DNA of 64,000 nucleotides from Nemertoderma westbladi (Eukaryota; Animalia; Xenacoelomorpha): the NCBI GenBank assembly GCA_032718475.1, contig JAUCBJ010000434.1:55298-119297 (forward strand), read 5' to 3'. Each line of letters opens with the position of its first letter. Within the stretch, counting starts at the first letter, position 1. Shown in pieces: positions 1,988-55,363 of this stretch. The position numbers were made by a program, and so were the translations under genes. Below the pieces are notes generated by a model, which saw only the letters and a list, made by a program, of their open reading frames with translations, made no database searches and was not told where the DNA came from.

Positions 1988-2152
1988 GGAAAGTCAGTGA
2001 GGCTTATCAACCAGAACCTGGAACTGAAAATATGGTGGTGGAACAGCTGCTATATATAAATAATAATATAAATATATAAATATATATGGCTTTTGTCATT
2101 TTCAACATTAGTTTGGAATGGAGTGGCGCCCATTTCGACTAAAAACAAATGT

Positions 2153-3086
2153 TTGCCACGACTAAATAATAGTCCCAGTGTGGCTCACTCATATGCCACG
2201 ACGATAGTGCCAGTGTGGCTCACTCACATGACACGACTATAGTCCCAGTGTGGCTCACTCATATGCCACGACGATAGTGCCAGTGTGGCTCACTCACATG
2301 ACACGACTATAGTCCCAGTGTGGCTCACTCATATACCACGACTATAGACCCTGTGTCGCTCACTCACATGACACGACTATAGTCCCAGTGTGGCTCACTC
2401 ATATACCACGACTATAGACCCTGTGTGGCTCACTCATATGCCACGACTATAGTCCCAGTGTGGCTCACTCATATGCCACGACTATAGTCCCAGTGTGGCT
2501 CACTCACATGACACGATTATAGTCCCAGTATGGCTCACTCACATGACACGACTATAGACCCTGTGTGGCTCACTCATATGCCACGACTATAGTCCCAGTG
2601 TGGTGTGGCTCACTCATATGCCACGACTATAGTCCCAGTGTGGCTCACTCATATACCACGACTATAGACCCTGTGTGGCTCACTCATATGCCACGACGAT
2701 AGTACCAGTGTGGCTCACTCATATGCCACAACTATAGTCCCAGTGTGGCTCACTCACATGACACGACTATAGTCCCAGTGGGGGTCACTCACATGACACG
2801 ACTATAGTCCCAGTGTGGCTCACTCATATGCCCCAACTATAGTCCCAGTGTGGCTCATTGATATGCCACGAAGATAGACCCAGGGAGGGGGCTTGCTCAT
2901 CAGCCACGACGATAGTCCCAGTGTGGCTTGCTTATATGCCACGACGATAGTCCCAGTGTGGCTCGCTTGTATGCCACGACGATAGTCCCAGTGTGGCTTG
3001 CTCATATGCCACGACGATAGTCCCAGTGTGGCTTGCTTGTATGCCACGACGATAGTCCCAGTGTGGCTCGCTTGTATGCCACTACT
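2153..3086. repeat. Tandem array of a 35-bp unit (GCCACGACTATAGTCCCAGTGTGGCTCACTCATAT), ~26 copies
   Basis: Head-to-tail copies with no unique spacers. The unit contains the palindrome GACTATAGTC. Confidence 0.95.
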
Positions 3087-3217
3087 ATTATATGAAGCGA
3101 GTTTGAAAGATGTCGTTCGCGGCGAATACATATTAAAATCAAGTTATATTGGTATACGTTAGTATATGTTAACCTCCTACCGCGTCATTAAACGGGCTAT
3201 TAACACCTCACTGTACA

Positions 3218-4245: not shown

Positions 4246-5476
4246 TGTTCGCGCTTTCAGACCTTTGGCAGTTTAACCCGCCAAATTAGGATGTCTGTTA
4301 GATAATAAATCACTTTAGCCGATGACAAATATTTGATTCACTACACTAGTCGAAACCAATCTGTGCGCGATCATTCACCCGCTGGATAATTCCCGGGAGA
4401 TTGGGTTCGACGGCTTAATTTTATTGCTATGTAAGCTTAATGTATTATTCGACTGACAGTATTATATAATCTCTGACAATATTATTCACCTTCGGGAATA
4501 TTAACAGTTCCTTTAGGACGTGGCGCTTTATTTATATAAACAGAGTTATGACTTAAACTACTCACAACGATATGGCTTAATTATAATTCACATATATGGC
4601 GCATTCTTTAGGAAATGCTTCGTTATCAGTATCACTCGCACACAATGCTGCACAATACTGCACACTGATCTGCCGATCTTCACTGATTTTAGTTACATAT
4701 AAAAGGAACACGGACTGACTCATGTAGGGGCTATCAAATAACATTAGATTCACTTCAAACCACTTTAACATAAGTCACAATCGTTATGTATAACCTTTCT
4801 CTCTTACCTTCAGTATATCAAGAATATTGGGTTTTCGGGGTTATTTATCGTTATTCCAAATATAATAATTCATCAACCAAATTATGAAGTACAGACAGCA
4901 AATAGCAGTATAACAATATAAAGTATGCACAGTGTTACACAGTATGCAGTGTATGCAGTACTGCAGTATGCATTGATTGCATTGAGTTAGGTTAGTCAAG
5001 ATAACGGATATATGTCCTTATGATTAAGCCTACTAGTGTACGGCTAAAACAGTAAAGCACAAAATACTTCCAAGCCGTTCTTTCTTTGGCTCAGGACTGA
5101 ATGTAAACACTGCACATAGGCATTGCGTCATTTCTCGGAAATTTTCTGTACAAGGAGCCACAAAAACGCTCTAATTGGCTGACTGAACTGAGAGACGCCG
5201 TAGAACAAAGGAAATCAACACGTATGAATGTCAGCTGTTAACCGTAGTCATAGTAACTACTGTTCAAGAGTAGCTATCACCCCTTTGCGTCACGAATTGC
5301 CATAGAATCATAAAATATGCCTTTCACAGTACACATACGGAGGAAATAGGTCTTAGATCCTCTAAAAACACCGATACAGCAATAATACGGTCTCTTACAC
5401 TTATTAAATCAACTACAGAGTATTTTAATGTAAAAGATAATAAAAATAACGGGGCAATTCAGCAAAGGCTTTTACA
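4246..5476 (-). repeat. 3' LTR of BEL element 1
   Basis: Direct repeat of 18690-19920 (offset 14444). I found only two substitutions by eye (4569/19013 and 5119/19563). Confidence 0.97.
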
Positions 5477-5484
5477 CCGCTCCC
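5477..5484 (-). other. Polypurine tract of BEL element 1 (GGGAGCGG)
   Basis: Purine-rich run on the sense strand directly abutting the TG of the 3' LTR. Confidence 0.65.
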
Positions 5485-8439
5485 AGAAAATGGGATTTTC
5501 AGTCTATAAAATATAAAAATCACAGTTTCTAAAACCTAAAGATACTCTAAACAGTTAGTCTTTCTTGCGCGGACGGCGTTTACGCAGTTTTTTAAAGCTA
5601 GCAAGAGTCCTTTTCTCTTTGGGGGGGAACCACTTTACTAGGAGGGCCATAACTCCTGGGTGAAGGGTGCAATATGATTGCATTAGAAGGTTTGGGTTTA
5701 CTGTCGGTGTCTCGTCCATTTCGATATGCTTCTCCTCGAGCTGATTTTCCTCCGCTTGTCATGGGATATGTTCGTCCAAAACTCTCGCAGAGAATAGGGT
5801 TTTCTAAGCTTGATATCTTCTTAGAGATTCGAGATTTCCCAATCGAACCGAGATAAGGCCAATTCGTTTATCGATTGGACTTACTGTTATAACTTACGTT
5901 TATCTGAACAAACGCATGTTTCCTTTTTGATCTTTATAGAATCACGTTTAACTCGTTTCGTACAAAGCTCTCCTTCACCTTGATGAAGGGTTGTATCGCG
6001 TTAAACGGGGACGACCATACGGTAGGATAGTGATATTAGGTGTCCGCATCACAATCCGGCTAGGTAAGATGGGCGGCTAGCTAGAAATCACTGTCGGAGT
6101 GTTACCGATTAATTGTTAGGGTAGCACTAGATCTTTGAACAGTGAATACAGTCCACGAGGATCCGCGACACCACCAGGATCGCAGGTCTGAGGTCCAACT
6201 AAGGAATGAGGAGGTTTGACCGAGTATTCCGGGACTCTGATCGTAGGTTTACTCCAGGATCGTTCGAGCCGAGTGAGCATAGGTGGTACGTCAAACAAGT
6301 TTCGCTCGAAACTCCAGTAAATATGACGAGCACAACTGTGTTTAACACAACGTTTCCGTGGATGTTTATGTCTTTCCGTTTATTGGCTGGATCTAGGGCA
6401 TTTATCGTAATAATACCAAAGACGCACGTCTGGTAGGGGTAACGCGGATGATATTTATTTGTTGTTACAATGCTTCTATCAAGAATTCCAAATATATGTT
6501 GGAGTTACCGCGTTTATTTGTTTCTTTAATGTCTTTTCTTTCGAGCCAATTTCGAATAGAATTTTCGCATTCGAATTTCAGTTTATGGTTCCGACTCCGC
6601 TGGGCAGGATATATAGTCGACATAGTCCGTATTGTGTAAATTGATAGAATGACCAGTAGTTAAGAAGCCCATATACGTACCATTACGCTGCGTATATGTC
6701 GCCGCGTATTAAGCTATCAACAAACGCCCGTAAAAGTAGAGTACATCGCTCCCCGATACCAAGACCATCCTCCATCAACTCCGTCATCTCTGCTATATAT
6801 GAGTTTATCCACATTATAAGGAGTTTATATCTAGGCGAGCGGGCGTCGCTGCCTACCCCAATCAACCCCCGGACAGGACGAGATCCTCAGCGCCGCTGTG
6901 TCGTCGCCGCCGTACTTTCGCCAACGACGTAGCCGCACAACGACAACGACAACCGGCACAAGTCACTCGACTGTCCGTCCCAAAGGCTTAGATGTACTTC
7001 AGGTATTCCTTGGAGAGTTAGGTTACTTTACGATTGCGACTGGCTACTGTAAACACACCTTAGCAGTAACATTCACCTATAAACTCACAAATACCACACA
7101 CACAACTTGTCACAAATTACACACATTCGGGCCATTTGTCCGTTAGTCAATGCCTTCCAGAATGTCACTGTATTATTATGTATCCTTGGATACTAGTAGT
7201 GCGCTATTTATTCCCTATGCTATTCAATGGTACAAGCTTTCTATTGTTCTTTTAACTCAATTCTAATTCTAGCGTGGTTGTTGCTATGGTGACATTATGC
7301 AAAGCTAGCGGTAGAATTAGAGTAATTCCAATGCATACAGATCTGGGATGTTATTTAATAGTATTCTTTAATAGTCAATGTTCTGTTTTATACATGACTT
7401 TATGAATTTTATCGGCTATTGACTATGTTTGGGAGACTTTCACACTCTCATACGCATGATAAGATAAATCTCCGCTCCCTTGATCTATTAATTAATGGAA
7501 TTTTGGGAACTTTATAAATTGCGTAAAATGGCAATTTATTAAATTCATTAAAAGGCATGAATTTAAATTTATTCCCTGAAATTTTATTATTTGATAATTA
7601 AATGGACATATTTTGATTCTAGAACATGTCTAGGGACACAAGATCCTTAATTCTATGACAATTGTCTTTTTTAAGAATATCGGTAAATGCTACGATATCT
7701 TAATTGACTAGAATTGTTGAAGGATCTGAATTTTACAGATTTTGATTTATTAGATTTGCAAATATTAAATAATTAATATTTGAGATGGGCACCGATTTAT
7801 TCCAGAACTTGTCTGGGGACGTTAACCACTGATTCTAGAATTTGTCTTTCAAGTATATCGGTGGGTGCCGCGATATCTTAATCGACTAGAATTACAGAAG
7901 GTCAAAGGGTTTAACAGATTTATTCTGCGTTATACGCTACTGTTAAAGGGACATCACGCTACTATATGTATTATTTAATATACGGTATGAGAGCAATATC
8001 GCACGAAGCAATGTCAGTGTGAAGAGGCAAGTCGTTTCCAAGGTCTACCCAGAGCTTGGTTTAGCCGAGACACGAGGATCTGAACTTTGCATTCCTAATA
8101 CTCTGCCTACCAATAATACTTAAATATAGTAGTGGCTTTATTGTACTTTTAATAAGTACGAACATTTCATCTTACTGTAGTTACGTATTTATAATATAAT
8201 ACGGACAGTAAGGAAAGAGAAAAATAATTATTTCTTCGCCGTCTCACTAAATATAATATAAGGAATTACGTACGTAATAAACACGAATATATTGCACTAT
8301 TCTACAAAATAATCGCTAAATAATATTCTACTAAATTAAATAAAACGATTATAATAAAATTACATAGTAATACATACATAAATATAAAAATAATAAAATA
8401 ATATAAAATAATAGAGTCACACGCCCACTCCGAACGATA

Positions 8440-11400
8440 TTAAGTTGGGGAGTCCCTAGATGTCGGTTGGATTAGAGAAGTGGTCGTGGGAAGAGTTTCT
8501 TGCCTTCCATAGTTTCCGGAGAGTTCTCTGTCTCTTTCCAGTAAACATAAACGTCCCACTGGGCGATTGAGCTGTTGAGTCTCAAAGACTATCCCTGGTT
8601 TCTTAAAGTTCCGCCGCATGACGACGAGCTCTACTGATCGCACCAAACCATCGCTCGAGATATAAGTCTCGATGATACGTCCTGTTTGCCATCGCTTACG
8701 TGGGAGATCGGGGTCCACAATAAGCACCATGTCTCCAGCGCTGACGTTTTCTTGCTGCGCAAACCACTTAGTTCGAAGTTGTAGAGTGGGCAGGTAATGT
8801 TTCTCGAAATGGTCAGCGAAACGACGGGATAGCAACTGCATAAGTTGCCAGGTTCGACGGCAGTACTCGTCTCCGTCTGTGATCTCCGATCGTGGGAGCA
8901 TGGCTACGGGTTTCTTCAGTAGAAAGTGCGCGGGTGTTAGCGCTTCCAGGGAATCAGGATTTGAAGAGACTGGCATAAGCGGTCTTTCGTTGAGATAGGC
9001 GGCGATTTCCTCCATTAACGTCCGCAATAGTTCGTCGGTGAGATAAGCGCGACAAGGCACAATAAAGTGGAACGCAGTCTTCACGCTCCTAATCAATCTC
9101 TCCCAACTTCCTCCCCACCAAGGGGCGTCGGCGGCGTTGAAGGTCCAGCTAGACGCTGTTATCCTTAGCTGATCGTCCACCTGTCTTTTGTTCCAGTCCT
9201 TTACGTAAGCTTGAATTTCGTTGTTGGCGCCAATGAAGTTCGTTCCCTTATCCGATCTCATCGTGTTACTGGTTCCGAAGCGAGCGATCTGTCGTCGTAA
9301 ACTCAACACGAAGCTGTTGGTGGATAGATCGTTTACCATATCGAGATGGATAGCTCTACAAGTCATACAAACGAAGATGACACACCATCTCTTGACTATA
9401 GTCCGGGCACGATATACTTCAATAGGGCCAAATAAATCCACACCGGTATTAGTAAAGGGTGGTTCATAGAAGCTTACTCTTTCCCTAGGTAATTCTGCCT
9501 CTCGCTGTGTTAAAGGCCTACTGAATGCTTTCTTACAGGGTATGCAGTTCCTAAGAACTTGGTTCAGAGCCCTACGGGGTTTATAAAAATAGTAGCGAGT
9601 TCGAATTTCGCTCAGAACTCGTTCTCTTCCAGCATGGTACAGTTTGCTATGGACATCTACAATCATCTTGATTTGTATATCAAGATTTCTAATGAGTATG
9701 GGAAACTTAGTGTCAAAGGATAATGGGGCGTTGGTCAGCCTACCTCCAACACGTATTAACCCATCTATCATGGTACTAGAGAAGCGATCCCTTAAGCGCA
9801 TCTGCGGATTTCTTAACAACAGGAAATACTTATCGGAATCCTCATAGCATTGTAGGAGTCTCAGCATCTGTTTGTTGGTTTCATCATGCTCCTGGTAACT
9901 GATCTTCTCCTTTAGAAACCTGTTGGATACCTTGTATTGGGGAAGATCTTTAACAACATGGACTCGTGCAGATGTTGATGGAGCATCATCACTATGGGTC
10001 TTTGTCCCGGAGTAACGATGATGAAAACATCGTTTTAAATAGGTGACGGCTTTACAGAGCCGATTCCAGGAACTGTAGTGACGTATCGCTCTCTGCAAGA
10101 GAGGTGAGAGTCCTTGCGCGATATCTGGTATTCCAGATTTCCAATCCTTGTCACGGATTTCCAAGACTTCTTTCGTCGTGGCGGTGGGTTTCTGATCCAA
10201 AGCATCATCTCCGGAAGTAAATAATACAGATAGATCAACCGCAGGTTTAAACAACTTCGATTTACTCGCTCGAGTTTTGGGTTTAACTTTCTCCGCTCCC
10301 TTGGCCTGTCTGATCTCTGCTGTTGTGAGATGAGGAGGCCATTCTTCTTCTTCTCTGTAGAGAAAGTCGGGTCCTCCTAACCATTCGGGAGTATTTACCA
10401 ATTCCTTTGGAGTCGCTCCTCGGGACGCGATGTCTGCTGGATTAATCATTCCGGGGCAATGTCTCCATTGGTCCATCGTCGTGCGACTAAGTATGATGGC
10501 TACCCTGTTGGTAACGAAGACGCTGAACTGACAGACTTCATTGGTTATATACTCTAACACGAGTAAAGCGTCGGTCCAATAGACAGTTTTCTCTAATGTA
10601 TAGTCAATCTGTTCGGTTACATTCCGGCCGATGGCTGTAGCGTATAGAGCCGCTTTTAACTCCGCTCGAGGAACTTTCAACTTGTTGTTGATTAATGCCT
10701 TAGAAGTAACCAAGGCGACTTTGATTCCATCCGGAGTTTCCACTCTTAGGTAGGCTACTATACCGATTCCCATATCGCTGGCGTCTCCAAACACATGGAG
10801 TTGATAGGAATACGTAGGGAGAACATGACCAAAATATGAACGGGAAATTATAAAATCCTCGATCGCTGGCAGCGAATCTTCCCACTTCATCCACTGCTTC
10901 AATAATTCCCCCTTAAGTGGATCGTCCCATGAGTGGTTTTCAAGCCACATTTGTTGTACCAAACTACGAGCAATCAATATAACTGGGCTAATAAATCCCA
11001 ATGGATCGAAATAAGTGCTCAGTATACTTAAGCAAATCCGTTTGGTTCGAACAGGATTATCTCGCTGTTTTAGTTGGAAAAACAGGATATCTCTCTCTGT
11101 GTCCCATTTCAAGCCGAGTGTCTTGGTTTCTGGCAGATCATCTTTGATCAAATCGAGATCTTTCGCTCCGCGATCTTCCGCAGGAATCGACTCCAGAAAC
11201 TCACGGGAGTTGCTGGTGAATTTTGTTAATCGAAACCCACCTCTTTTTAAGCACTCTACCGTTCCCTTAGCGACCTCAATGGCTTCCTCAACTGATGGAA
11301 GGGACTTCAGATTGTCGTCCATGTATATGTCTCTCTTGATGTTGTCGATCACTTCCTTAGAGAAGGCCTCTCTGTTGTCCTCTGCAGTAGTACGCACTAC

Positions 11401-14400
11401 CGAACAGGCGTTGGAAGGGCTTGAGATTATCCCAAAGGCCTGGATGGTCATCCAGTACTCCACCGGTTGCTGGTTGAGATCTCCTTCGGGCCACCATAGA
11501 AATCGTAGGCTATCTCGATCCCTATCCAACACTTTGACTTGCAAGAACATGCCTTCTATATCGGAGGCGAAAGCAATCGAATATTGTCTCAATCTTAAAA
11601 GAATTCCCAACAAAGATTGAAGCAAGTTGGGTCCGGGTAACAATTCAGAGTTAAGGGATTGACCCATGTAAAGAGCGGAGCCATCAAACACTACTCTCAC
11701 TTCATTAGGTTTACCGGGTTTAGGAACGTAATGGTGAGTTAAATAATACGTTCTTTCAGTCACAGGTGTTTCTTCCGGTACTCTCTCCGCATATCCCTTA
11801 TTAATGAATTTTTCCAGCTGTGTTTGATACATTGCTTTAGCTGATGAATTAGCCGTAAGGCGTCGATGGAGTTGCGCGATTCTTTTTTCCGCCAAAGGTC
11901 TGTTATTGATGAACTTCGGTTCTTTCTTGCGGAAAGGTAAACCGACTTCATACCTACCTTGATCTTTGAGGAAACATGTAGTTGTCTCTTGGATCTGCTT
12001 GGCCCTTTCCTCTTCCACCGACAAGGCTTTATCGTAGGAATTGGGCTCTACCGCCTCTTGCGTAAAGAATCGTACAGCATGTTCATCCCGAATCTTGGCA
12101 TTATGACGCTCAATGACGTCATTTAACTCGTCGTTATAAGCTTCTCGTTCAGATGGATAGAGAAGTTGACATAAGTTCACTTGGTTTTGCCAAGCCTCGT
12201 TTTCCTTAAGGAGATCGATGGTATTCTCCTCATCAAAAAGCTGGTGAACGTCGTCGTTATCTGAGGAGTATGGAATTCCCTCAGTTGAATCGTCTCCCTC
12301 ACTAGCATCCTCTTCCCATTCACTCACTTGGCAGACTCTCTCTTGCGGTAGTCTTTCTTTGAGTGTTCTACGGGAAGGGCCAGTAAAATACCATCCTACT
12401 CTAGTTCTTACCGCATAGGTCTGTAGGGGCTGCGGTTGAGCAGGCCGTTTCTCTAATGTCTCCAGCGCCTCATGCGCGTTTTGGCCGATGAGTATTTGCA
12501 CTCCAGGATAATCAGTCTGGAATCGAGGTATGTTAAGATGTTGGATGCTCTCATCCTCGTCCCAATTATAAAGGTCTGCTTGAGTAGTAGCGAAGTTCTT
12601 TATAGCCACCATTTTCACTGACCTTATGCTGTGTTCTCCTAGTTCGTCTTGTGGGGTGGACAACGCGCCTACATAATAATCAGCTGTTATTGTAGATTTC
12701 CAAACTTGCATAATGCCAGACATGTTGAGCTTAGTTTGGAACTTGGGCTGTCCAGCAAATATATCTTCGGCTAGCTCTTTATCGATGAATGTTCCTGTGC
12801 TGCCGGAGTCCAGGAGGGCGTTCACTACATAACTCCGTTTGGGTCCGTGCACCCTTACTTGCACCACAGGAAACTCTCGGATCCCTACATTGGAAGATGG
12901 TGCTTTCCACGATGGTTGTCGCTCAGAAGTAGTTAGAATGAAGTCGCTGTCTGTATCTTTTTCATATGTAAGTGCTCGATACACTGCGGTATTTATCATG
13001 TAACAGGATTCGTTTTCGTCGGAGAACTCATCCGTATAGAATCCTTCCATCTCAGATAGATCAGTGTCGTTCACATCACTGAATTGGACATGTAGTTCGG
13101 AATCACTTACCTGATTAGGACTATTTCGATCGAATTCAGCGTGCAACAAGATATGATGTTTCGCACCACACTTTGCACACCTTATGTCTGAGTAACAGGT
13201 TCGCCGTTGATGTCCTTGTCTGAGGCAGTTATAACACAACCGCTTGTCCCACATGACTTCACGTCTATCCTTTAGTGATTTCCTCAGGAATTTATCACAC
13301 GCATTTAAACGGTGGGGCCCGTCGCACAGCACACATTTGGGCTTGATGTTACTTACTTTAACATGTGCTGTGTGGTGCACACTTGTTCTTTCCTCGGGCT
13401 TTCTCACCTGAATTCTTTTAGGAGACGTAGGAGGGGTTTTTTGTACCGGTTCCCTTCTGTCATTGGGTCGAGACTTGGATTTACTTACCTGATCTTTAGG
13501 CATTTTATTGACATAAGATCTGTCAGTGTCTTTCCCGCTGTCCTCTCCTTGAGAAGTTTGGCTTTCACCGTCGTCGGTATAACATACTGGTATTACCCTT
13601 CTCCTAGAAACGGGTTTCTCACTTACCTTACTTTCCGCTGTCTTCTCTCTGGACTGCTTTATGAGCTGTAATTTCACCTCGCTATCCAGGAATGACATGA
13701 GATCAGCCATGGTAGGGTCTCGTTGTTGTTGTTCCATCATATATAACACCTTCTTGTCCCAGCGTGTACCTACTCCACCCTTGGGCAAAGTAGATGCTAA
13801 GGCTCCTACAACCATAGAATTCTGGTATTCATGAGACTTACCTAACCAATCTAGTTGTCTACAGATCTCCTGAATCTCATCGGAAAACTCTATAATCCCG
13901 CTGCTAAGAAACTTTCGGGGCGCCATTAATTTCGCATATAAATACCTAGCTATGTTAGTCTTATTACCATACCTGATGTTTAGTGTATCCCAAACTTGTC
14001 TTAATCCATCTGGATGTCCAATAAATTTTAACGCCATTGACTTGGGAGGTCCTTCCAAACACTCGATGAGGTATCTAAGTTTTTCTCCATTAGATAGTAC
14101 AGAGTTCTGTATGTTATCTTTGTAATATTCATTAAAAGGTAACCATTTCATCTCATCTCCATTGAACTTGACGATCTCTCCCACCTTTACCGCTTGCCGG
14201 GCTTCGGTTCTAGCCATTTGACGCGTAAAACTTTCTTGGGCCATCGTGTTATTTAATATCGAGTTATCGGTATATAAATTTCTCGGATTATGATCCGGTC
14301 TATAGGGAATATCATTATCAACAGGTCTATAATTACCCTTAATAGGGTTCACTATAGGAGTTTCTACTTCGCTAGCAGTATAGATGCGTGTAGGCTCCAC

Positions 14401-16536
14401 ACCTTGCGCATGCGATACTTCAGACCTAACAGGTTGACACATTGTTACAGAGGGTGGTGGTATACCCTTTTGGGTGTTTACTAATTTATCGCGTTCAAGC
14501 GCGATACTTTGCTGCACTTCTTGCAACTCTAACCTACTTTCCCTTACTGTGCCCTTGAATTGTTGGACAGTCTCCTGCATCTGCCCGAGCAGGAGATCCA
14601 TCCCCCGTCGTCTCTCGTCCACCCATTCGACCGCCGAAGCGGGAGTCGCCAACGTTGTAGCGGGCGGACGAGGGACAACGGGCGACAAATCCGGAATATT
14701 TCGCTCGGGGTCCAGGACCTGAACTGTCGCCTGGGCAGTTCTACTGGGCACAGGTAGCTTAGTGCTATGTAGAGGGAATTTAAAAGTAGCTTCAGGGAGC
14801 ACAGGTGTGTCTATCACCGAAGGGGTGATTTCAAGAACAGGCCTAATTATTTCAGGCTCATCTACTATAGTAGGGAGTCTTTCTATTGTAATTATTTGGT
14901 CTGTGGGCTCTGTACTACCTAAGTTGGTGTTATTTAGTTGCCTTCTAACAGCTGGAGGCAAATCAGGCAATTTCTGACGGTGGAATGTTCTTTTACGTCT
15001 GCTTAGGCGAGGTCGATTTCCTCCGCCTTCAGTGTCGGTGGTATCGCCTTCCTCAGATGATGTATACCCCTGTCTCTTGGGAGTAGATCGACTCATCATC
15101 TGCATATTGCTCGCTGTTAACTGTTTATTGAAGTTGTCTTGCTTCTCTTGAAGAATTTCCAACTCTAGTTGGGTTGCCTCTTCAGATGCCCTCCATTCTG
15201 CTTCTACCACTGCCTCTGCTGTTGCCAGTGCCGCCTTTCTTTCTGCTTCGGCCGCTGCCTTTGCTGCTGCTACTGCCGCTTTTGCCTCTGCCGCTGCCAC
15301 TGCCGCTGCCGCTTTTGTTTCTGCTTCTGCAGCTGCCACTGCTGCTGCTACTGCCGCTGCCTTTCTGTCTTCTATACGTTTTTTCTTTACTTGTTCTTCC
15401 TGGACCTTAACGACGCGGAGTTGTTCATCGAATTTAGCTTGATTAGCCGCTAACCTATCCACGTCGATGGCGTCAAGCACACGCTGTGCTCCTTCACTAT
15501 TAGGGCTAAGTCCCTCTAGTCTTCTCCGCAACTCTTCATCACCTACAAAACGTTGATAGTCTGACAGATAGATGTCAATGGCATCCCTCTTATGCGGTTT
15601 CTCTGCCGTCGCTTCACTTTCCACTTGGGAAAAAGTAGCGTCTGTTGATTCTCCATGGGTTGATCGCTCCTCTAGCTGAGCTTTCCACTGAGCAGTTCCT
15701 TGAACCTGGAGATTCACCCTTTGAAACCAAGTCTTGACGGCGACTTGCAACGACGTGTCTTGTCTTCGTTTAGAAGCCTCCTCAAAGGCCGATAATATTA
15801 GCCTGATTCGTAGAGTTCTTTCTCTAACTTGATAAAGCAGCAATCCCTGCTCTTGAGGTCCTTGCGATTGTTGAAAAAGTTGCTTTTCTACTCGCTCCAT
15901 AGAGCTGAAGAATCCCTGTGCATATCCGGCTGCGGACCTCTTCCACACAGCTGGATCGATGGTTTCCTTGGCTACTCCCATCCGGTGTATGTCTTCCCAG
16001 GCAGCTTCTGATAAATCAAACGGGAGTCCGGGTCCGGGGAAGTTCCATTGCGACTCGACAATAGACTTCAGTTCTTCACTCGTGTATCCCGCGTAACTAT
16101 CTCTAGTTGACCGTTGACTTCTCGCCCAATCGATCTGGTGTTCTTCCACCGCGATCAATAACCCAGCGAGCACGGCTGCAGGAAGGATGAGAAGGGGATC
16201 CGTATAAACCGCATCCGTCATCTCTGCTCCGCGCTCGGGTGTCAGCTCTACAGTATCCTCACTACTGGAGCTGCTGGGCCGCTGAGGAATAAGTTCTTGA
16301 CTAGCGGGTTGTTGTTGTTCCGCTGCTTGTTGGTCCCGCTTGACCTGAGCTCGGGTGCCTATGGTAGACCTACGATGTTGGACTAGCCTAGGTTCTGTTA
16401 TTACTACTGGAGGGATGACCTTCCTCACAGTGGGGGGTGAACTGAACTTACGACCAGACGGTTGTACGTCTCTATCTGAGTCGCAGATAGTTACATCTAA
16501 TAAACTGTCTGACAGGTTCTGCTTAGTATCAGACAT
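8440..16536 (-). CDS. BEL/Pao Gag-Pol polyprotein (2698 aa)
   Basis: Gag DUF1759-like segment (KFNGDEMKW..EKLRYL), three Zn knuckles (CVLCDGPHRLNAC, CYNCLRQGHQRRTC, CAKCGAKHHILLH), protease ALLDSGS, RT YMDD, RNase H HVFGDAS, integrase H..H..CIPC / GVDLFGP / SDKGTNF / GGSWER. Domain order PR-RT-RH-IN. Confidence 0.97.
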   Translation of the reverse strand: MSDTKQNLSDSLLDVTICDSDRDVQPSGRKFSSPPTVRKVIPPVVITEPRLVQHRRSTIGTRAQVKRDQQAAEQQQPASQELIPQRPSSSSSEDTVELTPERGAEMTDAVYTDPLLILPAAVLAGLLIAVEEHQIDWARSQRSTRDSYAGYTSEELKSIVESQWNFPGPGLPFDLSEAAWEDIHRMGVAKETIDPAVWKRSAAGYAQGFFSSMERVEKQLFQQSQGPQEQGLLLYQVRERTLRIRLILSAFEEASKRRQDTSLQVAVKTWFQRVNLQVQGTAQWKAQLEERSTHGESTDATFSQVESEATAEKPHKRDAIDIYLSDYQRFVGDEELRRRLEGLSPNSEGAQRVLDAIDVDRLAANQAKFDEQLRVVKVQEEQVKKKRIEDRKAAAVAAAVAAAEAETKAAAAVAAAEAKAAVAAAKAAAEAERKAALATAEAVVEAEWRASEEATQLELEILQEKQDNFNKQLTASNMQMMSRSTPKRQGYTSSEEGDTTDTEGGGNRPRLSRRKRTFHRQKLPDLPPAVRRQLNNTNLGSTEPTDQIITIERLPTIVDEPEIIRPVLEITPSVIDTPVLPEATFKFPLHSTKLPVPSRTAQATVQVLDPERNIPDLSPVVPRPPATTLATPASAVEWVDERRRGMDLLLGQMQETVQQFKGTVRESRLELQEVQQSIALERDKLVNTQKGIPPPSVTMCQPVRSEVSHAQGVEPTRIYTASEVETPIVNPIKGNYRPVDNDIPYRPDHNPRNLYTDNSILNNTMAQESFTRQMARTEARQAVKVGEIVKFNGDEMKWLPFNEYYKDNIQNSVLSNGEKLRYLIECLEGPPKSMALKFIGHPDGLRQVWDTLNIRYGNKTNIARYLYAKLMAPRKFLSSGIIEFSDEIQEICRQLDWLGKSHEYQNSMVVGALASTLPKGGVGTRWDKKVLYMMEQQQRDPTMADLMSFLDSEVKLQLIKQSREKTAESKVSEKPVSRRRVIPVCYTDDGESQTSQGEDSGKDTDRSYVNKMPKDQVSKSKSRPNDRREPVQKTPPTSPKRIQVRKPEERTSVHHTAHVKVSNIKPKCVLCDGPHRLNACDKFLRKSLKDRREVMWDKRLCYNCLRQGHQRRTCYSDIRCAKCGAKHHILLHAEFDRNSPNQVSDSELHVQFSDVNDTDLSEMEGFYTDEFSDENESCYMINTAVYRALTYEKDTDSDFILTTSERQPSWKAPSSNVGIREFPVVQVRVHGPKRSYVVNALLDSGSTGTFIDKELAEDIFAGQPKFQTKLNMSGIMQVWKSTITADYYVGALSTPQDELGEHSIRSVKMVAIKNFATTQADLYNWDEDESIQHLNIPRFQTDYPGVQILIGQNAHEALETLEKRPAQPQPLQTYAVRTRVGWYFTGPSRRTLKERLPQERVCQVSEWEEDASEGDDSTEGIPYSSDNDDVHQLFDEENTIDLLKENEAWQNQVNLCQLLYPSEREAYNDELNDVIERHNAKIRDEHAVRFFTQEAVEPNSYDKALSVEEERAKQIQETTTCFLKDQGRYEVGLPFRKKEPKFINNRPLAEKRIAQLHRRLTANSSAKAMYQTQLEKFINKGYAERVPEETPVTERTYYLTHHYVPKPGKPNEVRVVFDGSALYMGQSLNSELLPGPNLLQSLLGILLRLRQYSIAFASDIEGMFLQVKVLDRDRDSLRFLWWPEGDLNQQPVEYWMTIQAFGIISSPSNACSVVRTTAEDNREAFSKEVIDNIKRDIYMDDNLKSLPSVEEAIEVAKGTVECLKRGGFRLTKFTSNSREFLESIPAEDRGAKDLDLIKDDLPETKTLGLKWDTERDILFFQLKQRDNPVRTKRICLSILSTYFDPLGFISPVILIARSLVQQMWLENHSWDDPLKGELLKQWMKWEDSLPAIEDFIISRSYFGHVLPTYSYQLHVFGDASDMGIGIVAYLRVETPDGIKVALVTSKALINNKLKVPRAELKAALYATAIGRNVTEQIDYTLEKTVYWTDALLVLEYITNEVCQFSVFVTNRVAIILSRTTMDQWRHCPGMINPADIASRGATPKELVNTPEWLGGPDFLYREEEEWPPHLTTAEIRQAKGAEKVKPKTRASKSKLFKPAVDLSVLFTSGDDALDQKPTATTKEVLEIRDKDWKSGIPDIAQGLSPLLQRAIRHYSSWNRLCKAVTYLKRCFHHRYSGTKTHSDDAPSTSARVHVVKDLPQYKVSNRFLKEKISYQEHDETNKQMLRLLQCYEDSDKYFLLLRNPQMRLRDRFSSTMIDGLIRVGGRLTNAPLSFDTKFPILIRNLDIQIKMIVDVHSKLYHAGRERVLSEIRTRYYFYKPRRALNQVLRNCIPCKKAFSRPLTQREAELPRERVSFYEPPFTNTGVDLFGPIEVYRARTIVKRWCVIFVCMTCRAIHLDMVNDLSTNSFVLSLRRQIARFGTSNTMRSDKGTNFIGANNEIQAYVKDWNKRQVDDQLRITASSWTFNAADAPWWGGSWERLIRSVKTAFHFIVPCRAYLTDELLRTLMEEIAAYLNERPLMPVSSNPDSLEALTPAHFLLKKPVAMLPRSEITDGDEYCRRTWQLMQLLSRRFADHFEKHYLPTLQLRTKWFAQQENVSAGDMVLIVDPDLPRKRWQTGRIIETYISSDGLVRSVELVVMRRNFKKPGIVFETQQLNRPVGRLCLLERDRELSGNYGRQETLPTTTSLIQPTSRDSPT

Positions 16537-17859
16537 GACTATGTATGTACAGTTGAATGCCTACTGCTATATTACAGTCTAAGCAAGTCTAGTAACTCAG
16601 TATTAACTGCTAGCCTAGTAATTAATTACCGGTACTGCTACTCAGTGTAGCGTGATATATAATATATTATAATACCGGTATGCTTATAGTATATATAACT
16701 ATTATTACAGACTAGGTTTATCACCGAATACCGGTATAATTTTAGCACAAATATATATAAATATATAATAGGCCTATCGTAAATACCGGTATACAGCTGA
16801 CAGTTTGTAGTGTATATATAAGTATAGTTATTAACTGAATTAATTACAGAATACCGGTATGCTTTCAGCACAAATATAAATATTATAATAGCCTATCGTA
16901 AATACCGGTATATCAATTATTTTAGAATAATTGAATTTCTGAACTTTTAGGGTTACTTGGTTACTTTAACTTACTTTATTACCGTTATTTAAGCAGTAGT
17001 CTAACTGATATTGAGACCTAATTGTTGGATGGTAGGCCTACTATTTATAAATCGTTGGAGTTGATTTATAATATATATATACCCGTTTTAATGGGTTTTG
17101 TCAATTTTGAAATAAATGTTATTATTTCTGGGGAGTAATCACTACACAAAGCGGTGCGCTTTCAGTGAAGTGTTACTTATAAGACACTAAAACAAATAAT
17201 ACTAATTTACCTAAGTTACTTAATACTACAAATTACTTACAATTCGGGTGAGATTACAATCTCTAAATAAACACAAAAATTTACAAAAACACAAAATACG
17301 AATTTTTAGGGTAATTTTACAAGAAGTCTACAAACCAGCCTAACAAAGGGTTAGATAACCGATTATTACACGGACAGGGTACTACGGTATTTGAAATAAT
17401 AAGTAGTAGTAAATACACTGCGTTGTCTAGATAGGAAAATACCACCGCCTGACGACCTATAGCCGTATCGCTATAGGTTCTACGTTATGTATCACGGAGT
17501 GTTCCTACCTAGAAGTTAATAGAGCTAATCGAATGTGCCTATCAACCACTTTACAACACAGATATAATGTCTACACTAATTACTTCGGAAAGTACTGTAC
17601 ACTAAACCCTAAATTAGGTACGAGTACTTGTATAACATATAATCAGTAGTTAAATATACTTGAACAGCTAAAAGAACCACAGCATCTGCTGGAGTGACCG
17701 ATGCACAAAATCACCAGTCTTTACCTACGCCAAGCAGCCCGTGTAGTACCGGGGTTAATTTAACTATAGCGGTATGTATAACAAACACAATTACTGTAGG
17801 AACAAACTTGGGGAATGAATGTTGCGAATAATCGCATAAACTCTGAATAATAAATATTA

Positions 17860-18430
17860 CGCTACGCGTACAAACTACTCAAACAAAATGCAGACCGAAC
17901 ACTGACAGACTACTATCAAGCCTAAACAAATACGGTATATGCAGACTCCGAAATAATTAGGTAGTATGCGTTCTAACCCAGTAGTACGACTTATTCTTTA
18001 ATTGGGGGTTTACCTTATAGCTTTGGCTGCCCCAACTTCCCAACCGTTCTTTATCGGACAAGGGCTCTACACAGACTGCAATCCGTTCAGACCTAATAAC
18101 AGCCAGACAATTATCCAGCCTACAAATTATCTAAATAATATTATACGCTACCTGTACCGACTACACAAACAAAGTACAGACCAAACGATGGCAGACTACT
18201 CTCAAGCCTAAATAAACTACAGGACATGCAGACTCCGAAATAGTTAGGTAGTATGCGTTCTAAACCCAGTAGTACGACTTATTCTTTAATTGGGGGTTTA
18301 CTTTACAGCAATGGCTACCCCAACTTCCCAACCGTTCTTTATCGGACAGGTGACCTACACACACTGCAATCCGTTCAGACTTAACAGCAATCAGACAACA
18401 GCTCAGCCTACAACTTGTCTGTACAATATG
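17860..18430. repeat. Diverged ~288-bp tandem duplication in the 5' leader of BEL element 1
   Basis: GCAGACTCCGAAATA..GGTAGTATGCGTTC..CAACTTCCCAACCGTTCTTTATCGGACA occurs at ~17941 and ~18228. Confidence 0.85.
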
Positions 18431-18678
18431 ATCAGGCTTACACGCCTTCTGTTCAATACTGGCCTACAAACAAATAAAACTTGACAGAAATAAGTAAAAG
18501 TCTCAATAAAAAACCAGGGCGGGCCCTCCCTGATTAATTATTAAGGCCTACCGGTATATAATTATCAAAATCGAATAATACTGCTGTAGGTACCGGTCCG
18601 GATGATCAGGCAGTCAGGCCTACTGGTTACCGGTCGACCAGTACTTTCGACTTTATTGCTTACTGCAATAAAGAAGCA

Positions 18679-18689
18679 ATATCCGTTAT
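18679..18689 (-). other. Non-tRNA primer-binding site of BEL element 1 (sense ATAACGGATAT)
   Basis: Directly follows the 5' LTR end, has no TGG, and is the exact complement of LTR positions 19445-19455. Confidence 0.75.
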
Positions 18690-19920
18690 TGTTCGCGCTT
18701 TCAGACCTTTGGCAGTTTAACCCGCCAAATTAGGATGTCTGTTAGATAATAAATCACTTTAGCCGATGACAAATATTTGATTCACTACACTAGTCGAAAC
18801 CAATCTGTGCGCGATCATTCACCCGCTGGATAATTCCCGGGAGATTGGGTTCGACGGCTTAATTTTATTGCTATGTAAGCTTAATGTATTATTCGACTGA
18901 CAGTATTATATAATCTCTGACAATATTATTCACCTTCGGGAATATTAACAGTTCCTTTAGGACGTGGCGCTTTATTTATATAAACAGAGTTATGACTTAA
19001 ACTACTCACAACAATATGGCTTAATTATAATTCACATATATGGCGCATTCTTTAGGAAATGCTTCGTTATCAGTATCACTCGCACACAATGCTGCACAAT
19101 ACTGCACACTGATCTGCCGATCTTCACTGATTTTAGTTACATATAAAAGGAACACGGACTGACTCATGTAGGGGCTATCAAATAACATTAGATTCACTTC
19201 AAACCACTTTAACATAAGTCACAATCGTTATGTATAACCTTTCTCTCTTACCTTCAGTATATCAAGAATATTGGGTTTTCGGGGTTATTTATCGTTATTC
19301 CAAATATAATAATTCATCAACCAAATTATGAAGTACAGACAGCAAATAGCAGTATAACAATATAAAGTATGCACAGTGTTACACAGTATGCAGTGTATGC
19401 AGTACTGCAGTATGCATTGATTGCATTGAGTTAGGTTAGTCAAGATAACGGATATATGTCCTTATGATTAAGCCTACTAGTGTACGGCTAAAACAGTAAA
19501 GCACAAAATACTTCCAAGCCGTTCTTTCTTTGGCTCAGGACTGAATGTAAACACTGCACATAAGCATTGCGTCATTTCTCGGAAATTTTCTGTACAAGGA
19601 GCCACAAAAACGCTCTAATTGGCTGACTGAACTGAGAGACGCCGTAGAACAAAGGAAATCAACACGTATGAATGTCAGCTGTTAACCGTAGTCATAGTAA
19701 CTACTGTTCAAGAGTAGCTATCACCCCTTTGCGTCACGAATTGCCATAGAATCATAAAATATGCCTTTCACAGTACACATACGGAGGAAATAGGTCTTAG
19801 ATCCTCTAAAAACACCGATACAGCAATAATACGGTCTCTTACACTTATTAAATCAACTACAGAGTATTTTAATGTAAAAGATAATAAAAATAACGGGGCA
19901 ATTCAGCAAAGGCTTTTACA
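18690..19920 (-). repeat. 5' LTR of BEL element 1
   Basis: Direct repeat of 4246-5476. Sense strand reads TGTAAAAGCC...GCGCGAACA. Confidence 0.97.
19445..19455 (-). other. Candidate self-primer / transcript 5' end of BEL element 1 (sense ATATCCGTTAT; second copy at 5001-5011)
   Basis: Perfect 11-nt complement of the PBS. Pairing stops at both flanking positions. Confidence 0.65.
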
Positions 19921-29552: not shown

Positions 29553-31196
29553 ATGATGAATAGAGACGGGGAATCTGCAGTCAGGCGCAGAGTTATTACC
29601 GGTATTGGGGAGGCCTCTGAGAAAGAAGATGCCCCCATTATCGATGACCCCACCGATGGTAATCACGTTAACAACATCACCGCCACCGGATTAGATAAAT
29701 TTCCGTTTAATGTGCTTAATTATTTACCGGAAAGTCAACTCTTCCTAATTATCTGCCTGTATAGAGTGTCGATTAATCTTAGTTTTGTTAACACATGGTT
29801 CGTACCTGATGAATACTGGCAGTCCTTGGAAGTTGCCCATTACCATGCATATGGCTATGGATATTTGACGTGGGAATGGAAATACAAGATCCGCAGTCAC
29901 TTACACCCCATGATTTTCCACGCCGTGTATAGTTTGCTGCAAGCTATGGGGTTAAACGACAGACAAGTCGTTCTTGAGGGACCTAGAATAGTTCAATGTT
30001 TCCTTTCATCGATTGGGGACTTATATGTTTATAAATTGAGCTACAAGTTGACTAGTAACAGAATTTTAGCCTATTATTCCTTATTATTTCATTTATCATC
30101 CTGGTTTATATTTTACACGGCGCCTCGCACTTTGGTGAACTGTATGGAAGCAACATTAACAACGATGGGGTTGTATTACTACCCCTGGAAGTCTCCAGAA
30201 GTTTCCCCAATTGTGTATCTATTGATTAGCGGCATGACTGTTCTAATGAGACCAACAGCAGCCATTGTTTGGACCCCGTTCCTAATTTGGCATGTATTCA
30301 GGGCGAAATTTTCACCTTTGCTAATAACTCGGCTTGTTGGATGCGGGATAGTTTGTTTATCATTTAATTTAATAGTAGATAGAAGTTATTATGGGGTGTG
30401 GGAGTTTCCAGCTTGGAACTTCCTAAAGTTTAACTTCCTGCAAAATCAGAGCGGGTTCTATGGTACCCACCCGTGGTACTGGTACATATCTCAGGGTCTC
30501 CCAACTGTTTTGGGACCTGATTTACTTTTATTTTTAATAGGTTTTTTTAACTGCGAAAAGAAGGGGTTACTCCCCTTACAATTTGCCATAGTGTGGACCG
30601 TGGGTGTGTACAGCATTCTTCCGCACAAGGAGTTTCGATTTCTTCTATGTATTCTACCCCAAGCAATGATTATGTGCGGTTCTGCTATTTACGACGTTAC
30701 ATTGATATGTTCTACATTTGGTAGAAAGGTTATTTTATCTGCTGTATTTATCGGGCTACTGACTGCCAAAATTGGCATGGCATATTATTTTGGAGTGGTC
30801 CATCAAGTAGGTGCCATCGGCGTTATGAAAGTTCTTCATGATTTAACGCCCACCAATTCTAGTGGCATTCTCTTCCTAATGCCTTGCCATTCAACCCCTT
30901 TTTATGCCCACATGCACAAAAACATTCCAATGCGTTTCCTTACGTGCGAGCCTTTCCTTGGTCAAACCAACTACACTGATGAGGCTGATGATTTCTATAA
31001 AGACCCCGCGGGCTGGTTGTTTGATAACTACCACCTGGACCGATATATGCCCCAACATGTTGTTATGTTTGATGTTTTAAAACCACGTATTGAAATCTTC
31101 TTAAAGACACACTGGTATAAATTGTGCGCAAAGATTTTTCATACTGATTTACCGGAGGGTCGTATTGGAAATTTTATACTTATATATTGTAGATAA
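29553..31196 (+). CDS. PIGB: GPI mannosyltransferase 3 (GT22/Alg9-like), single exon
   Basis: Motifs FVPDEYWQSLEVAH, GYGYLTWEW, RPT, FYGTHPWYWY, PHKEFRF, LMPCHSTP and FLTCEP. Multi-pass hydrophobic protein. AATAAA at ~31264. Confidence 0.95.
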   Translation: MMNRDGESAVRRRVITGIGEASEKEDAPIIDDPTDGNHVNNITATGLDKFPFNVLNYLPESQLFLIICLYRVSINLSFVNTWFVPDEYWQSLEVAHYHAYGYGYLTWEWKYKIRSHLHPMIFHAVYSLLQAMGLNDRQVVLEGPRIVQCFLSSIGDLYVYKLSYKLTSNRILAYYSLLFHLSSWFIFYTAPRTLVNCMEATLTTMGLYYYPWKSPEVSPIVYLLISGMTVLMRPTAAIVWTPFLIWHVFRAKFSPLLITRLVGCGIVCLSFNLIVDRSYYGVWEFPAWNFLKFNFLQNQSGFYGTHPWYWYISQGLPTVLGPDLLLFLIGFFNCEKKGLLPLQFAIVWTVGVYSILPHKEFRFLLCILPQAMIMCGSAIYDVTLICSTFGRKVILSAVFIGLLTAKIGMAYYFGVVHQVGAIGVMKVLHDLTPTNSSGILFLMPCHSTPFYAHMHKNIPMRFLTCEPFLGQTNYTDEADDFYKDPAGWLFDNYHLDRYMPQHVVMFDVLKPRIEIFLKTHWYKLCAKIFHTDLPEGRIGNFILIYCR

Positions 31197-34387: not shown

Positions 34388-35840
34388 ATACTACTAGTAT
34401 CGGCATGCTACAGTGCAGCTGCATTTTTAAGAATGCTGTGCCGGCTTGTCGACAAAATTGCGCCGCCACAACTCCCTATCACCCATGACATTTGCTAGAT
34501 CATCCGCATCTTCAAGGCCAGTGTCCTTTAAGATGCGTCTCTAGAAAGTCATGGGCTGTCCACCATGCTTATTCACTCCATGAGGCTGCCAAAGTACAAG
34601 ATTATGCACTGGCTGGTCCTCACGGCGAAAGCAATGTCCTGCAAAGCGGAGGCGATTTTGTTCTAGTGTCAAGCTTGGGGGAACCAATGAGACACCTCCA
34701 ATGTTATATAGTGTCTGGTTGGAGATGTGTGCATTGTACTTGACACAATGAACCCGGCGTAGCATTCTTGTGAATGTGCCATCCAGAGATTTGGTGTCCT
34801 CAGCAGTTAGAGCCCAGCATGGACTCCCATAGAGGAGTACTGGAACTACTGCTGCTCTAAATAATCGGACCTTAAGTTTCCGAATAATTCTCGGTGACTT
34901 CCAAATCCTGGAAAGCCTATTCAAGGCTGCCCATGCCTTTCCCTTACGTATTCGAAGGTCCTCACCTGACTTTCGGATCCATGATCCCAGGTAACAGAAG
35001 TCGTCCACATGCTCAAGCATACCATCCTTTGAGCTTATGCTCATCCGATCAGAGACTTGCTGAGAACTTTCAAAGTTAACTGTCAAAATTTTGGTCTTTC
35101 TGGAGTTAATAAAAAGACCAACACTAGAAGCAGCATGTTCTAATGAGCTGAGGAGCCGTTGGGCTCCCTCTAGTGATTCTGAGAGTACTCCTAAGTCATC
35201 AGCAAAGTCTAGATCAGTTAGGTACTTGGCAGGATTTCCTCGACTTCTGGAGCCAGTAGGTGGAGTTATCATCACCCCATCATCATTATGATGATCTAAG
35301 GACATGCGTAGAACATAGTCAACCACAATTACGGACAAGAATGGTGCAAGTGTGTCTCCCTGGAGGACGCCCCATAACACTTCAAATGGTTCTGTGTCAC
35401 CATCAACAGTAGACACAAATGTTGTCAAACCATCGTATACTGATCTGATTGCTGCAATAATTTCATCAGGAATCCCATATAATGAAAGTATGCTGAACAT
35501 ACGTGAGCGGGAGACTGAATCAAAGGCCTTGAATAAGTCAACAAAGATAACAGCCAGATGCCTGTCTTTCTTTTTTGATAACTCTTCAATTATCCTTCTA
35601 AGTGCCAAAATGGGTTCCATGGTCGCACGACCTTTACGGAACCCATTCTGATTTCCACGGAGCAGTCTCTCAATGGGATCCCTGATGCGATTTAATATAA
35701 TTCTATTGTATAGCTTTGCAGCAATCGAGATCAATGAGATTCCCCGAAAAGAACCATAGAGTGTTAGGTTGCCCTTCTTGGGAACTGGCACCAACTTATT
35801 TGTTTTCATATCTTGTGGGACTCTTGTTGTCACTGGTGAG
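34388..35840 (-). mobile_element. 5'-truncated non-LTR retrotransposon (RTE-like), RT domain and C-terminus
   Basis: Motifs FRGISLIS, QNGFRKGR, FVDLFKAFDSV, GVLQGDTLAP, LDFADD, FCYLGS and VLLYGSPCW. Ends in a short TAG-rich tail. Confidence 0.92.
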
Positions 35841-36193
35841 ACATAGGGATGGGGAAAGTTGACGCAAATCTCGATAAATTAATAATAATATATCTTCAGA
35901 TGAATTACAAATATTCGAATTTATCATTTGAATTCAGCATTGAGGGGGGTCCCCTCCCCTGTAGTGCCCGTTATTTTAACGAAAGCAAAACTATAAACGA
36001 ATTTAATACAGTAATAATAGGCTACAGTTTAATACAGTAATATGTTCTTAAATAATTCGGCTGTTATTTGCTTCGATTTTCCCCATGGAGAGTGACATAT
36101 TTTATATCTTTTAGGGCCACCTGTACAGTTGTAGGTCTTAGACAGTTAGGCCTATCATACTATACAATACATGATTACATTAGTTAATTAATA

Positions 36194-37156
36194 ATGGGGA
36201 TGTTTTGTGGAAGTAGCCAATCACGTAATTGGATGTTTTCGTCTAAAGGAGAATTAGACCAGGTACGTGAGGAAACAAACACGCGATTCCATACGGCGAA
36301 CAACCCGGACGGTACCAGAATCGATTTCTTAGACGAACTGGAGGAACAAATGATAATACAGTTCTATTTGCGGGAGGTGCAGGGATTGTGCAGTTCGTTT
36401 AGGCCTGCCGTCCCCAAGGCTGTTATCGGCACTGCCTGCTCTTATATGAAGCGAATAGCCTTAGGAAACAGCGCGATGGATTACCATCCCAAGGACTTCT
36501 ACCTCCCGTGTTTATACCTAGCGACAAAGGTGGAAGAGTTTAACGTGTCCATCGTGGAGTTCGTTAGAAACATCCCCGGCCCCGGGGATAAACGTCGTCT
36601 CGCTGAAAGAATAACGACCCTAGAACCCAAAGTTATTCATCTACTAAACTACCAACTCATAGTTCACAACCCATTTCGAGCCATCGAGGGATTTATTATC
36701 GATTTGAAAAGAATCGGTTCTCTTCAGAACGTCGATAAACTAATAAAAAAAGCTGACGAATTCATCCTGTGGTCGCTCTACACGGACGCTAGTTTGCTGT
36801 ACTCTCCGTCGCAAATCGCTTTAGCCGCTTTATCTTACAGCAGTAATAAAAATAAATGCTCGCTGGATCCGTATATGCACGATGTTTTATTTCCGGGAGG
36901 ATCTGTCGACGCGATAACGGCTGTTATTAAATCGATAATTAAATTGGTTCGCTCTGTTCGTATTCCCGAGGAAGGGATGATCGTTAGGTTGTTAGAACGG
37001 CTCGAACGTTGTCGAAACGCAGAGCTCAATCCCGACTCTGAGGTTTATAAGGAGAGGGAGAAGCGATTATGGGAGGAAGAAGAAGGGATTCAGGCTGAAA
37101 AACAAGCCGTTATTTACGCGAAAATACGCCAGGAAGAGGAACTTATTTTGGGTTGA
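36194..37156 (+). CDS. CCNH: Cyclin H (CAK/TFIIH subunit), single exon
   Basis: Motifs MFCGSSQSRNWMF, VIGTACSYMKR, MDYHPK..CLYLATKVEEFNVS, LNYQLIVHNPFRAIEGFIIDLK and LLYSPSQIALAA. AATAAA follows the stop. Confidence 0.95.
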   Translation: MGMFCGSSQSRNWMFSSKGELDQVREETNTRFHTANNPDGTRIDFLDELEEQMIIQFYLREVQGLCSSFRPAVPKAVIGTACSYMKRIALGNSAMDYHPKDFYLPCLYLATKVEEFNVSIVEFVRNIPGPGDKRRLAERITTLEPKVIHLLNYQLIVHNPFRAIEGFIIDLKRIGSLQNVDKLIKKADEFILWSLYTDASLLYSPSQIALAALSYSSNKNKCSLDPYMHDVLFPGGSVDAITAVIKSIIKLVRSVRIPEEGMIVRLLERLERCRNAELNPDSEVYKEREKRLWEEEEGIQAEKQAVIYAKIRQEEELILG

Positions 37157-47953: not shown

Positions 47954-47964
47954 GTAAAAAGATA
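47954..47964 (+). other. Non-tRNA primer-binding site of BEL element 2 (GTAAAAAGATA)
   Basis: Abuts the 5' LTR, has no TGG, and is complementary to 47795-47805. Confidence 0.75.
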
Positions 47965-55310: not shown

Positions 55311-55363
55311 AAAATAAATAAAATTTTTTGAGATTTTGGCTTCGCAATATCTCAAGGGGGGAC

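Follow-up and report, generated by a model that had tools for sequence, protein, structure and literature searches.

In the cited portions of the respective reports, the LTR retrotransposon Tf1 self-primes with the first 11 bases of its RNA, which is cut between bases 11 and 12 (PMC7175516), self-priming has been proposed for Tj1 (PMC4600332), and it has also been proposed for other Tf1/sushi elements together with a fold of three duplexes termed the 'pretzel' (bioRxiv 10.1101/2022.12.06.519325). Self-priming was further predicted for the plant elements Tcn1 (gypsy) and TAR, Houba and Osr-1 (copia), for which the cited part of the study gives a complement of at least 10 bp starting 0–5 bp after the LTR (PMC6317226). 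The Belpaoviridae, to which BEL/Pao elements belong, are described by the ICTV as 4.2–10 kb in size and as primed by host tRNA-Arg or tRNA-Gly via an 18-nt complementary site (PMC8742986).

Two BEL/Pao elements, here called elements 1 and 2, lie in the window, by which we mean the whole 64-kb stretch of DNA that was analysed (Table 1). Elsewhere in the window, a 35-nt tandem array at 2038–3171 lies outside both elements, and host genes apparently without introns were seen for a ligand-gated ion channel, an ALG9-like mannosyltransferase and a cyclin (737–1987, 29553–31196, 36188–37156). A reverse-transcriptase fragment on the minus strand (34541–35878; PF00078, weak DUF6451) probably comes from a non-LTR element.

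Table 1. Features of the two BEL/Pao elements in the window and LTR ends of the junction-type relatives (positions in the window, except for the relatives, where they are those of each contig).
Feature	Position	Strand	Remarks
Element 1	19920-4246	minus	LTR retrotransposon, BEL/Pao, 15.7 kb
Element 1 5' LTR	18690-19920	minus	1231 nt, TG...CA ends
Element 1 candidate self-primer	19445-19455	minus	LTR nt 466-476; 3' copy 5011-5001
Intron candidate in element 1 LTR	19175-19251	minus	77 nt, GT-AG; donor, branch and acceptor motifs
Nearest AATAAA past element 1 primer	18971-18976	minus	LTR nt 945
U5 hairpin (predicted)	18708-18729	minus	just before element 1 LTR end
Element 1 primer-binding site (candidate)	18679-18689	minus	no TGG, no spacer after LTR
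Leader hairpin (predicted)	18651-18673	minus	just past element 1 primer-binding site
Element 1 gag-pol	8440-16560	minus	single open frame, 2706 aa, BEL/Pao type
Element 1 3' LTR	4246-5476	minus	short purine tract directly ahead
Element 2	47454-55862	plus	BEL/Pao; target duplication TACTA
Element 2 5' LTR	47454-47953	plus	500 nt
Element 2 candidate self-primer	47795-47805	plus	LTR nt 342-352; 3' copy starts 55704
Element 2 primer-binding site (candidate)	47954-47964	plus	no TGG, no spacer after LTR
Element 2 gag-pol	49601-54045	plus	broken BEL/Pao frame: frameshifts and stops
Element 2 3' LTR	55364-55862	plus	10 differences from 5' LTR
Junction-type relatives, LTR end	L004 55; L007 1077; L008 124; L018 55; L031 1516; L065 55; L080 125

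Both ends of element 1 are fixed by a 5-bp target duplication, AAATT. A domain search of its polyprotein identified PF03564 (aa 799–927), PF05380 (aa 1839–1997), the integrase zinc finger PF17921 (aa 2298–2345) and PF18701 (aa 2570–2672), with a weak hit under the cut-off to PF13650 (aa 1233–1270) and no match to a chromodomain. The translated sequence also shows acidic motifs that we take to be those of RT, RNase H and integrase. The gag-pol is thus of the Pao type, with the order PR-RT-RH-IN, and both elements have TG...CA ends, a purine tract and a target duplication. The elements agree with the Belpaoviridae (Semotivirus) in domain set and order, single gag-pol frame, TG...CA LTRs of approximately 0.5–1.2 kb, purine tract and 5-bp duplication, but they differ from the ICTV description in that neither has a tRNA site and that element 1, at 15.7 kb, exceeds the size range. 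They also differ from the Tf1/sushi elements, which are Ty3/gypsy chromoviruses (Metaviridae); membership in that group is ruled out by the Pao-specific domains (PF05380, PF03564, PF18701) and the lack of a chromodomain match.

The open frame of 2706 aa and the LTR pair, with 2 mismatches in 1231 nt (at 19013 and 19563 only), bear out an earlier description of element 1, made from the letters of the window, as intact and recently active. Element 1 is a young and apparently intact BEL/Pao element, and its primer site is therefore expected to be functional. A comparison of its RT-RNase H with 1.84 billion representatives gave nearest relatives that were mostly about 40–44% identical, and a tunicate sequence was among the ten that were looked up. 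The 2.1-kb leader (16561–18689) contains a 288-nt tandem duplication (17842–18432). The 3-kb 3' region (5477–8439) contains no frame longer than 103 aa and thus no env gene.

It is established that the 3' end of the primer sets the right end of the LTR, so a primer must anneal within a few nucleotides of that end. In element 1, the first 11 nt of the leader directly adjoin the terminal CA of the LTR with neither spacer nor TGG, and their exact complement lies in the LTR itself, as the sequence-only reading had pointed out; no further exact complement of this 11-mer occurs anywhere in the 64-kb window. The first TGG of the leader stands 49 nt past the LTR end, with none in the preceding 48 nt, and was discounted as a primer site on account of this distance. 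The 18-nt site for a tRNA 3' end that the ICTV describes for the family was found in neither element. The two hairpins said to flank the site were recovered as predicted folds. A pairing of exactly 11 nt was confirmed for the copy in the window, where it breaks on both sides, and gave way to 12 nt for most copies of the family. The match is rare, as had been claimed, but the chance estimate of 3e-4 was about threefold too low, since the 11-mer turned up in 18 shuffles when the LTR was shuffled 20,000 times with its dinucleotides preserved (9e-4). Across the internal region of element 1, only 5 of 13,203 positions begin an 11-mer complementary to the LTR, and the primer site is one of these five.

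Element 2, which was not picked for the pairing trait, provides an independent look at the same arrangement. The first 11 nt of its leader are an exact complement of a segment of its own LTR, a match reproduced in 22 of 20,000 shuffles, and no TGG occurs within 66 nt of its LTR end. The LTRs of the two elements are unalignable (best E value, 0.074) and their RT-RNase H regions are 38–45% identical; the pairing is the same in position and in length (11 nt), while its letters are different. Like Tf1, Tf2 and Tj1, elements 1 and 2 lack a tRNA site and carry, directly after the LTR CA, an 11-nt site that pairs with the 5' LTR. Both also show what was used to recognize Tcn1 and TAR, namely a complement of at least 10 nt beginning 0–5 nt after the LTR and no tRNA site, although Tcn1 and TAR/Houba/Osr-1 belong to other superfamilies and to plant hosts. 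Two further observations concern element 2. GT follows its 5' LTR (47954–47955) and AC precedes its 3' LTR (55362–55363), which is not so in element 1, and linear DNA could therefore carry symmetric 2-nt extensions. Its 3' region contains a 52-nt tandem array (54635–55325).

A scan of metagenome contigs confirmed 561 BEL loci, of which the best 80 were kept as relatives; viral contigs were scanned twice and yielded none. A direct repeat around the RT was present in 29 of the 80 loci, 13 of which were examined, and at nine of these 13, each on its own branch, the LTR end was clean, that is, fixed by two copies. Eight of the nine carry a self-complement of 10–13 nt at offset 0–3, compared with 10 of 440 control positions put through the same best-of-five-offsets test with a threshold of 10 nt. 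In seven of the nine, the pairing over 10–13 nt exists only across a GT-AG junction within the element's own LTR; the donor is GTAAG in six of these seven, the acceptors are mostly pyrimidine-rich, and the introns whose removal would build the primer are mostly 77–97 nt long. The site of one junction-type locus (L065) can alternatively be read as T-TGG. One locus (L015) pairs contiguously over 10 nt, in the 5' copy only, and the sole TGG case among the nine is L029. Two loci with old, diverged LTRs showed 11 contiguous nt at offset 3 (L034) and 13 nt at offset 8, confined to the 3' copy (L044), and two whose contigs end inside the 3' LTR (L048, L069) gave no match of at least 10 nt. Matches end at 10–14 nt in all families, and the primer ends in AC in nine of the ten self-type elements (eight relatives plus elements 1 and 2), the one in element 1 ending in AT. 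The pairing had at first been presented as a trait of a single element, a view that did not survive, since it is common to element 2 and most sampled relatives, often in the splice-built form.

These counts bear on the explanation by chance, in which a short complementarity arose in AT-rich DNA and the tRNA site decayed or was displaced. An 11-mer is indeed short, and an undirected leader scan of all 80 loci, which includes chance matches and is not counted as support, gave matches of 11–14 nt at positions other than LTR ends as well. Against this stand two elements at about 1e-3 each, the eight of nine relatives versus 10 of 440 controls, and the youth and integrity of element 1, whose site should work. 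Chance is already largely refuted, and we give it next to no weight.

Within the pairs L039 (627) and L051 (198) and L010 (1140) and L011 (137), whose LTR ends were located by scan rather than fixed by two copies, the site and its LTR partner differ by matched changes. A separate TGG lineage comprises L029 (405), L066 (260) and L028 (71), and L053 (127) may hold another TGG site. The TGG site of this lineage presumably resembles initiator tRNA-Met, which is not among the tRNA-Arg and tRNA-Gly primers given by the ICTV for the Belpaoviridae. In a midpoint-rooted RT-RNase H tree of 80 rows, from which L033 and L052 were excluded for low coverage, elements 1 and 2, both on long branches, form a sister pair (0.98) whose grouping with the TGG-type lineage of L029 is weak (0.78–0.96), and contiguous types are scattered among junction types.

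Variation within the family of element 1 was followed in four public runs (X1, X3, X4, X5), which contain many diverged copies as short contigs. In a 121-nt stretch, whose edges are under-reported, six of the seven variant places listed fall on the 12 primer-site positions 18678–18689. The change 18678 A>T, carried by most of the family depth in X1, X3 and X5, lengthens the pairing to 12 nt, reaching 19456. X1 and X3 also contain an LTR-side variant, a C-to-T change in the middle of the 11-mer, from which the compensating change, plus-strand 18684 C>T, was foretold before looking. It was found in 37 contigs of X1, 31 of X3 and 2 of X5, X4 having no coverage there; the compensatory pair is known from separate contigs, which are too short to link both sites. 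Four further site variants (18689, 18685, 18682, 18681) had no LTR-side partner among the 40 of 269 rows listed, which is attributable to that share of the rows and to a depth near 19450 that is several-fold lower. The primer site of this family thus varies, unlike a site set by a tRNA, which should stay constant; in L029, L066 and L028, the flanks of the TGG-type site have diverged and the site itself has not changed. In several family variants, other sequence takes the place of the LTR segment that directly follows the candidate primer (19357–19444), with joints at 19442–19446.

The same variation weighs on a different interpretation, in which the pairing serves as a structural switch in translation, packaging or dimer formation, and a host RNA, for example an internal tRNA fragment, is the primer. 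Half-tRNA primers without TGG are known in copia elements, according to the part of the study cited (PMC6317226), and competing hairpins cover the primer site in element 2. Elements 1 and 2 and the eight relative families, however, have wholly different sites, and the site also varies within a family, so that one host RNA cannot match all versions, whereas each element's own LTR does; it is also the sole partner that was found for every version of the site. The paired segment, moreover, begins 0–3 nt from the LTR end in every case. No tRNA genes were found in the 64-kb window by ARAGORN, and a search of the LTR-leader regions against Rfam gave one chance-level match for element 1 (E value, 0.87) and none for element 2, hence no sign of a tRNA-like primer encoded by the elements. 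We regard a host-RNA primer as quite improbable.

Comparison with element 2, the family variation and eight of the nine relatives therefore lend good support to the original proposal that element 1 would prime itself without a tRNA. Our preferred reading, to which we assign a probability of about 0.7, is that elements 1 and 2 self-prime in the Tf1 manner, by fold-back of the front end of the RNA, an RNase H cut and extension through U5 and R. For element 1, the RNA would start at or slightly before 19455–19456 and its front end would fold back onto the primer-binding site. By analogy with Tf1, the RNase H of the element would then cut just past the paired segment, after 19445, and the new RNA 3' end would prime minus-strand DNA through U5 and R. 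The paired segment is contiguous in elements 1 and 2 and would need no splicing; in most of the sampled relatives, it would arise only once the LTR intron is spliced out. The AT end of the element 1 primer, the four site variants without a partner and the compensatory pair known from separate contigs speak against the preferred reading.

In RNA folding predictions, the primer helix of element 1 was in the minimum-energy fold for six of seven RNA lengths, with a probability near 1, which speaks for the preferred reading; its loss at the longest length counts against that reading. The helix of element 2 was in the minimum-energy fold for only two of seven lengths, which also counts against it; at the others it loses to competing hairpins by 1.6–6.2 kcal/mol at 37 °C. 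With respect to the RNA start, the element 1 helix formed when the RNA began at LTR nt 456–466 (4/4) and did not when it began at nt 1–441 (0/4), so that it is predicted only for a start within about 10 nt of the 11-mer. As for the other duplexes of a pretzel, an 11-bp U5-leader helix (18797–18787 with 18644–18634) and a 10-bp R-leader helix (19412–19403 with 18670–18661) could form in element 1, but local hairpins are preferred to them in the minimum-energy fold. A Tf1-like pretzel is thus possible in element 1 and not favoured by the folding model. In this the element may differ from Tf1, and its start and cut are here predicted from sequence.

The position of the start is also the point at which a variant of self-priming has to be considered, in which the RNA starts upstream and is cut internally, or the partner is the 3' LTR copy, perhaps on a second packaged RNA. 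The 200 nt upstream of the element 1 match contain no TATAWAW, and hence no TATA box at -30, and have initiator-like motifs at -89, -175 and -180, all of which would suit an upstream start. A start downstream of the 11-mer might be indicated by the strong splice donor at 19251, and, were the match start the RNA start, the first exon of the junction-type relatives would have to be as short as 5–8 nt. On the other hand, the helix leaves the minimum-energy fold once the RNA starts at least 25 nt upstream, and the end of the matches at 10–14 nt in all families likewise speaks against this variant. TATAWAW lies at -31 and -32 of the match start in L004 and L010, two of five hits in 18 upstream regions, a placement that also argues against this variant and gives a weak hint that the match start may be the RNA start.

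Poly(A) signals point in the same direction. Nine of the ten self-type elements have an A(A/T)TAAA downstream of the primer, and none has one in the 40 nt upstream; it lies 11–124 nt past the primer in seven of the eight relatives and 18 and 38 nt past it in element 2. In element 1, the nearest AATAAA comes 468 nt after the primer, which counts against the preferred reading. Signals downstream of the primer fit a primer derived from the 5' end of the RNA, and a natural poly(A) end was rejected as the primer because the signals lie beyond it. With this evidence on both sides, we consider an upstream start or a 3' LTR partner unlikely.

The LTR of element 1 also contains an intron candidate of its own, which at 77 nt matches most of the introns that would build the primer in relatives in size. 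It lies within the predicted R, between the primer and the AATAAA, so a spliced genomic RNA would lose the segment and the genomic RNA would need to retain the intron, which counts against the preferred reading. Its junction has no pairing to the primer site, and no family contig in the public runs skips 19251–19175. A splice-built primer was rejected for element 1, as the sole junction match has poor splice signals and is no longer than the contiguous match; for element 2, no junction match was found.

With regard to novelty, no report of self-priming in BEL/Pao was found in a full-text literature search covering titles and the beginnings of abstracts, with Repbase and subscription papers outside its scope. 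By term count, the main text of a survey of metazoan BEL/Pao elements contains no mention of primer, tRNA, priming or PBS (PMC3118150), and neither tRNA nor priming occurs in the Sinbad paper (PMC554778); the accessible parts of five further papers hold nothing on BEL/Pao self-priming (PMC3601003, PMC8220671, PMC5443660, PMC13524379, PMC3286476). A search for splice-junction primers returned nothing, and a primer spanning a splice junction, as most relatives would have, is not described for Tf1 in the portion of its literature cited here. Tf1-like self-priming is thus a known mechanism that would be new in the BEL/Pao superfamily, and at the priming step these elements likely work like Tf1.

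The wider proposal, which we hold with somewhat less assurance and still consider reasonably probable, is that a large part of BEL/Pao does without tRNA priming, using in most sampled lineages primers pieced together when an LTR intron is spliced out behind a tiny first exon and in others, elements 1 and 2 among them, contiguous segments of 11–12 nt that co-evolve with their sites. Self-priming would account for the failure of tRNA-based annotation to locate a primer site in such elements. In the junction-type relatives, the host would have to splice the 5' LTR copy and leave the 3' copy unspliced. From the sequence of each element, the positions of its start and its cut can be predicted with a margin of one or two nucleotides. 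Silencing by tRNA fragments aimed at primer sites is known in mammals, and a self-primed element would have its primer site freed from the host tRNA sequence and, by extension, perhaps from such silencing. If the reading is true, the Tf1 mechanism is present in a third LTR superfamily, which would suggest that it originated repeatedly.
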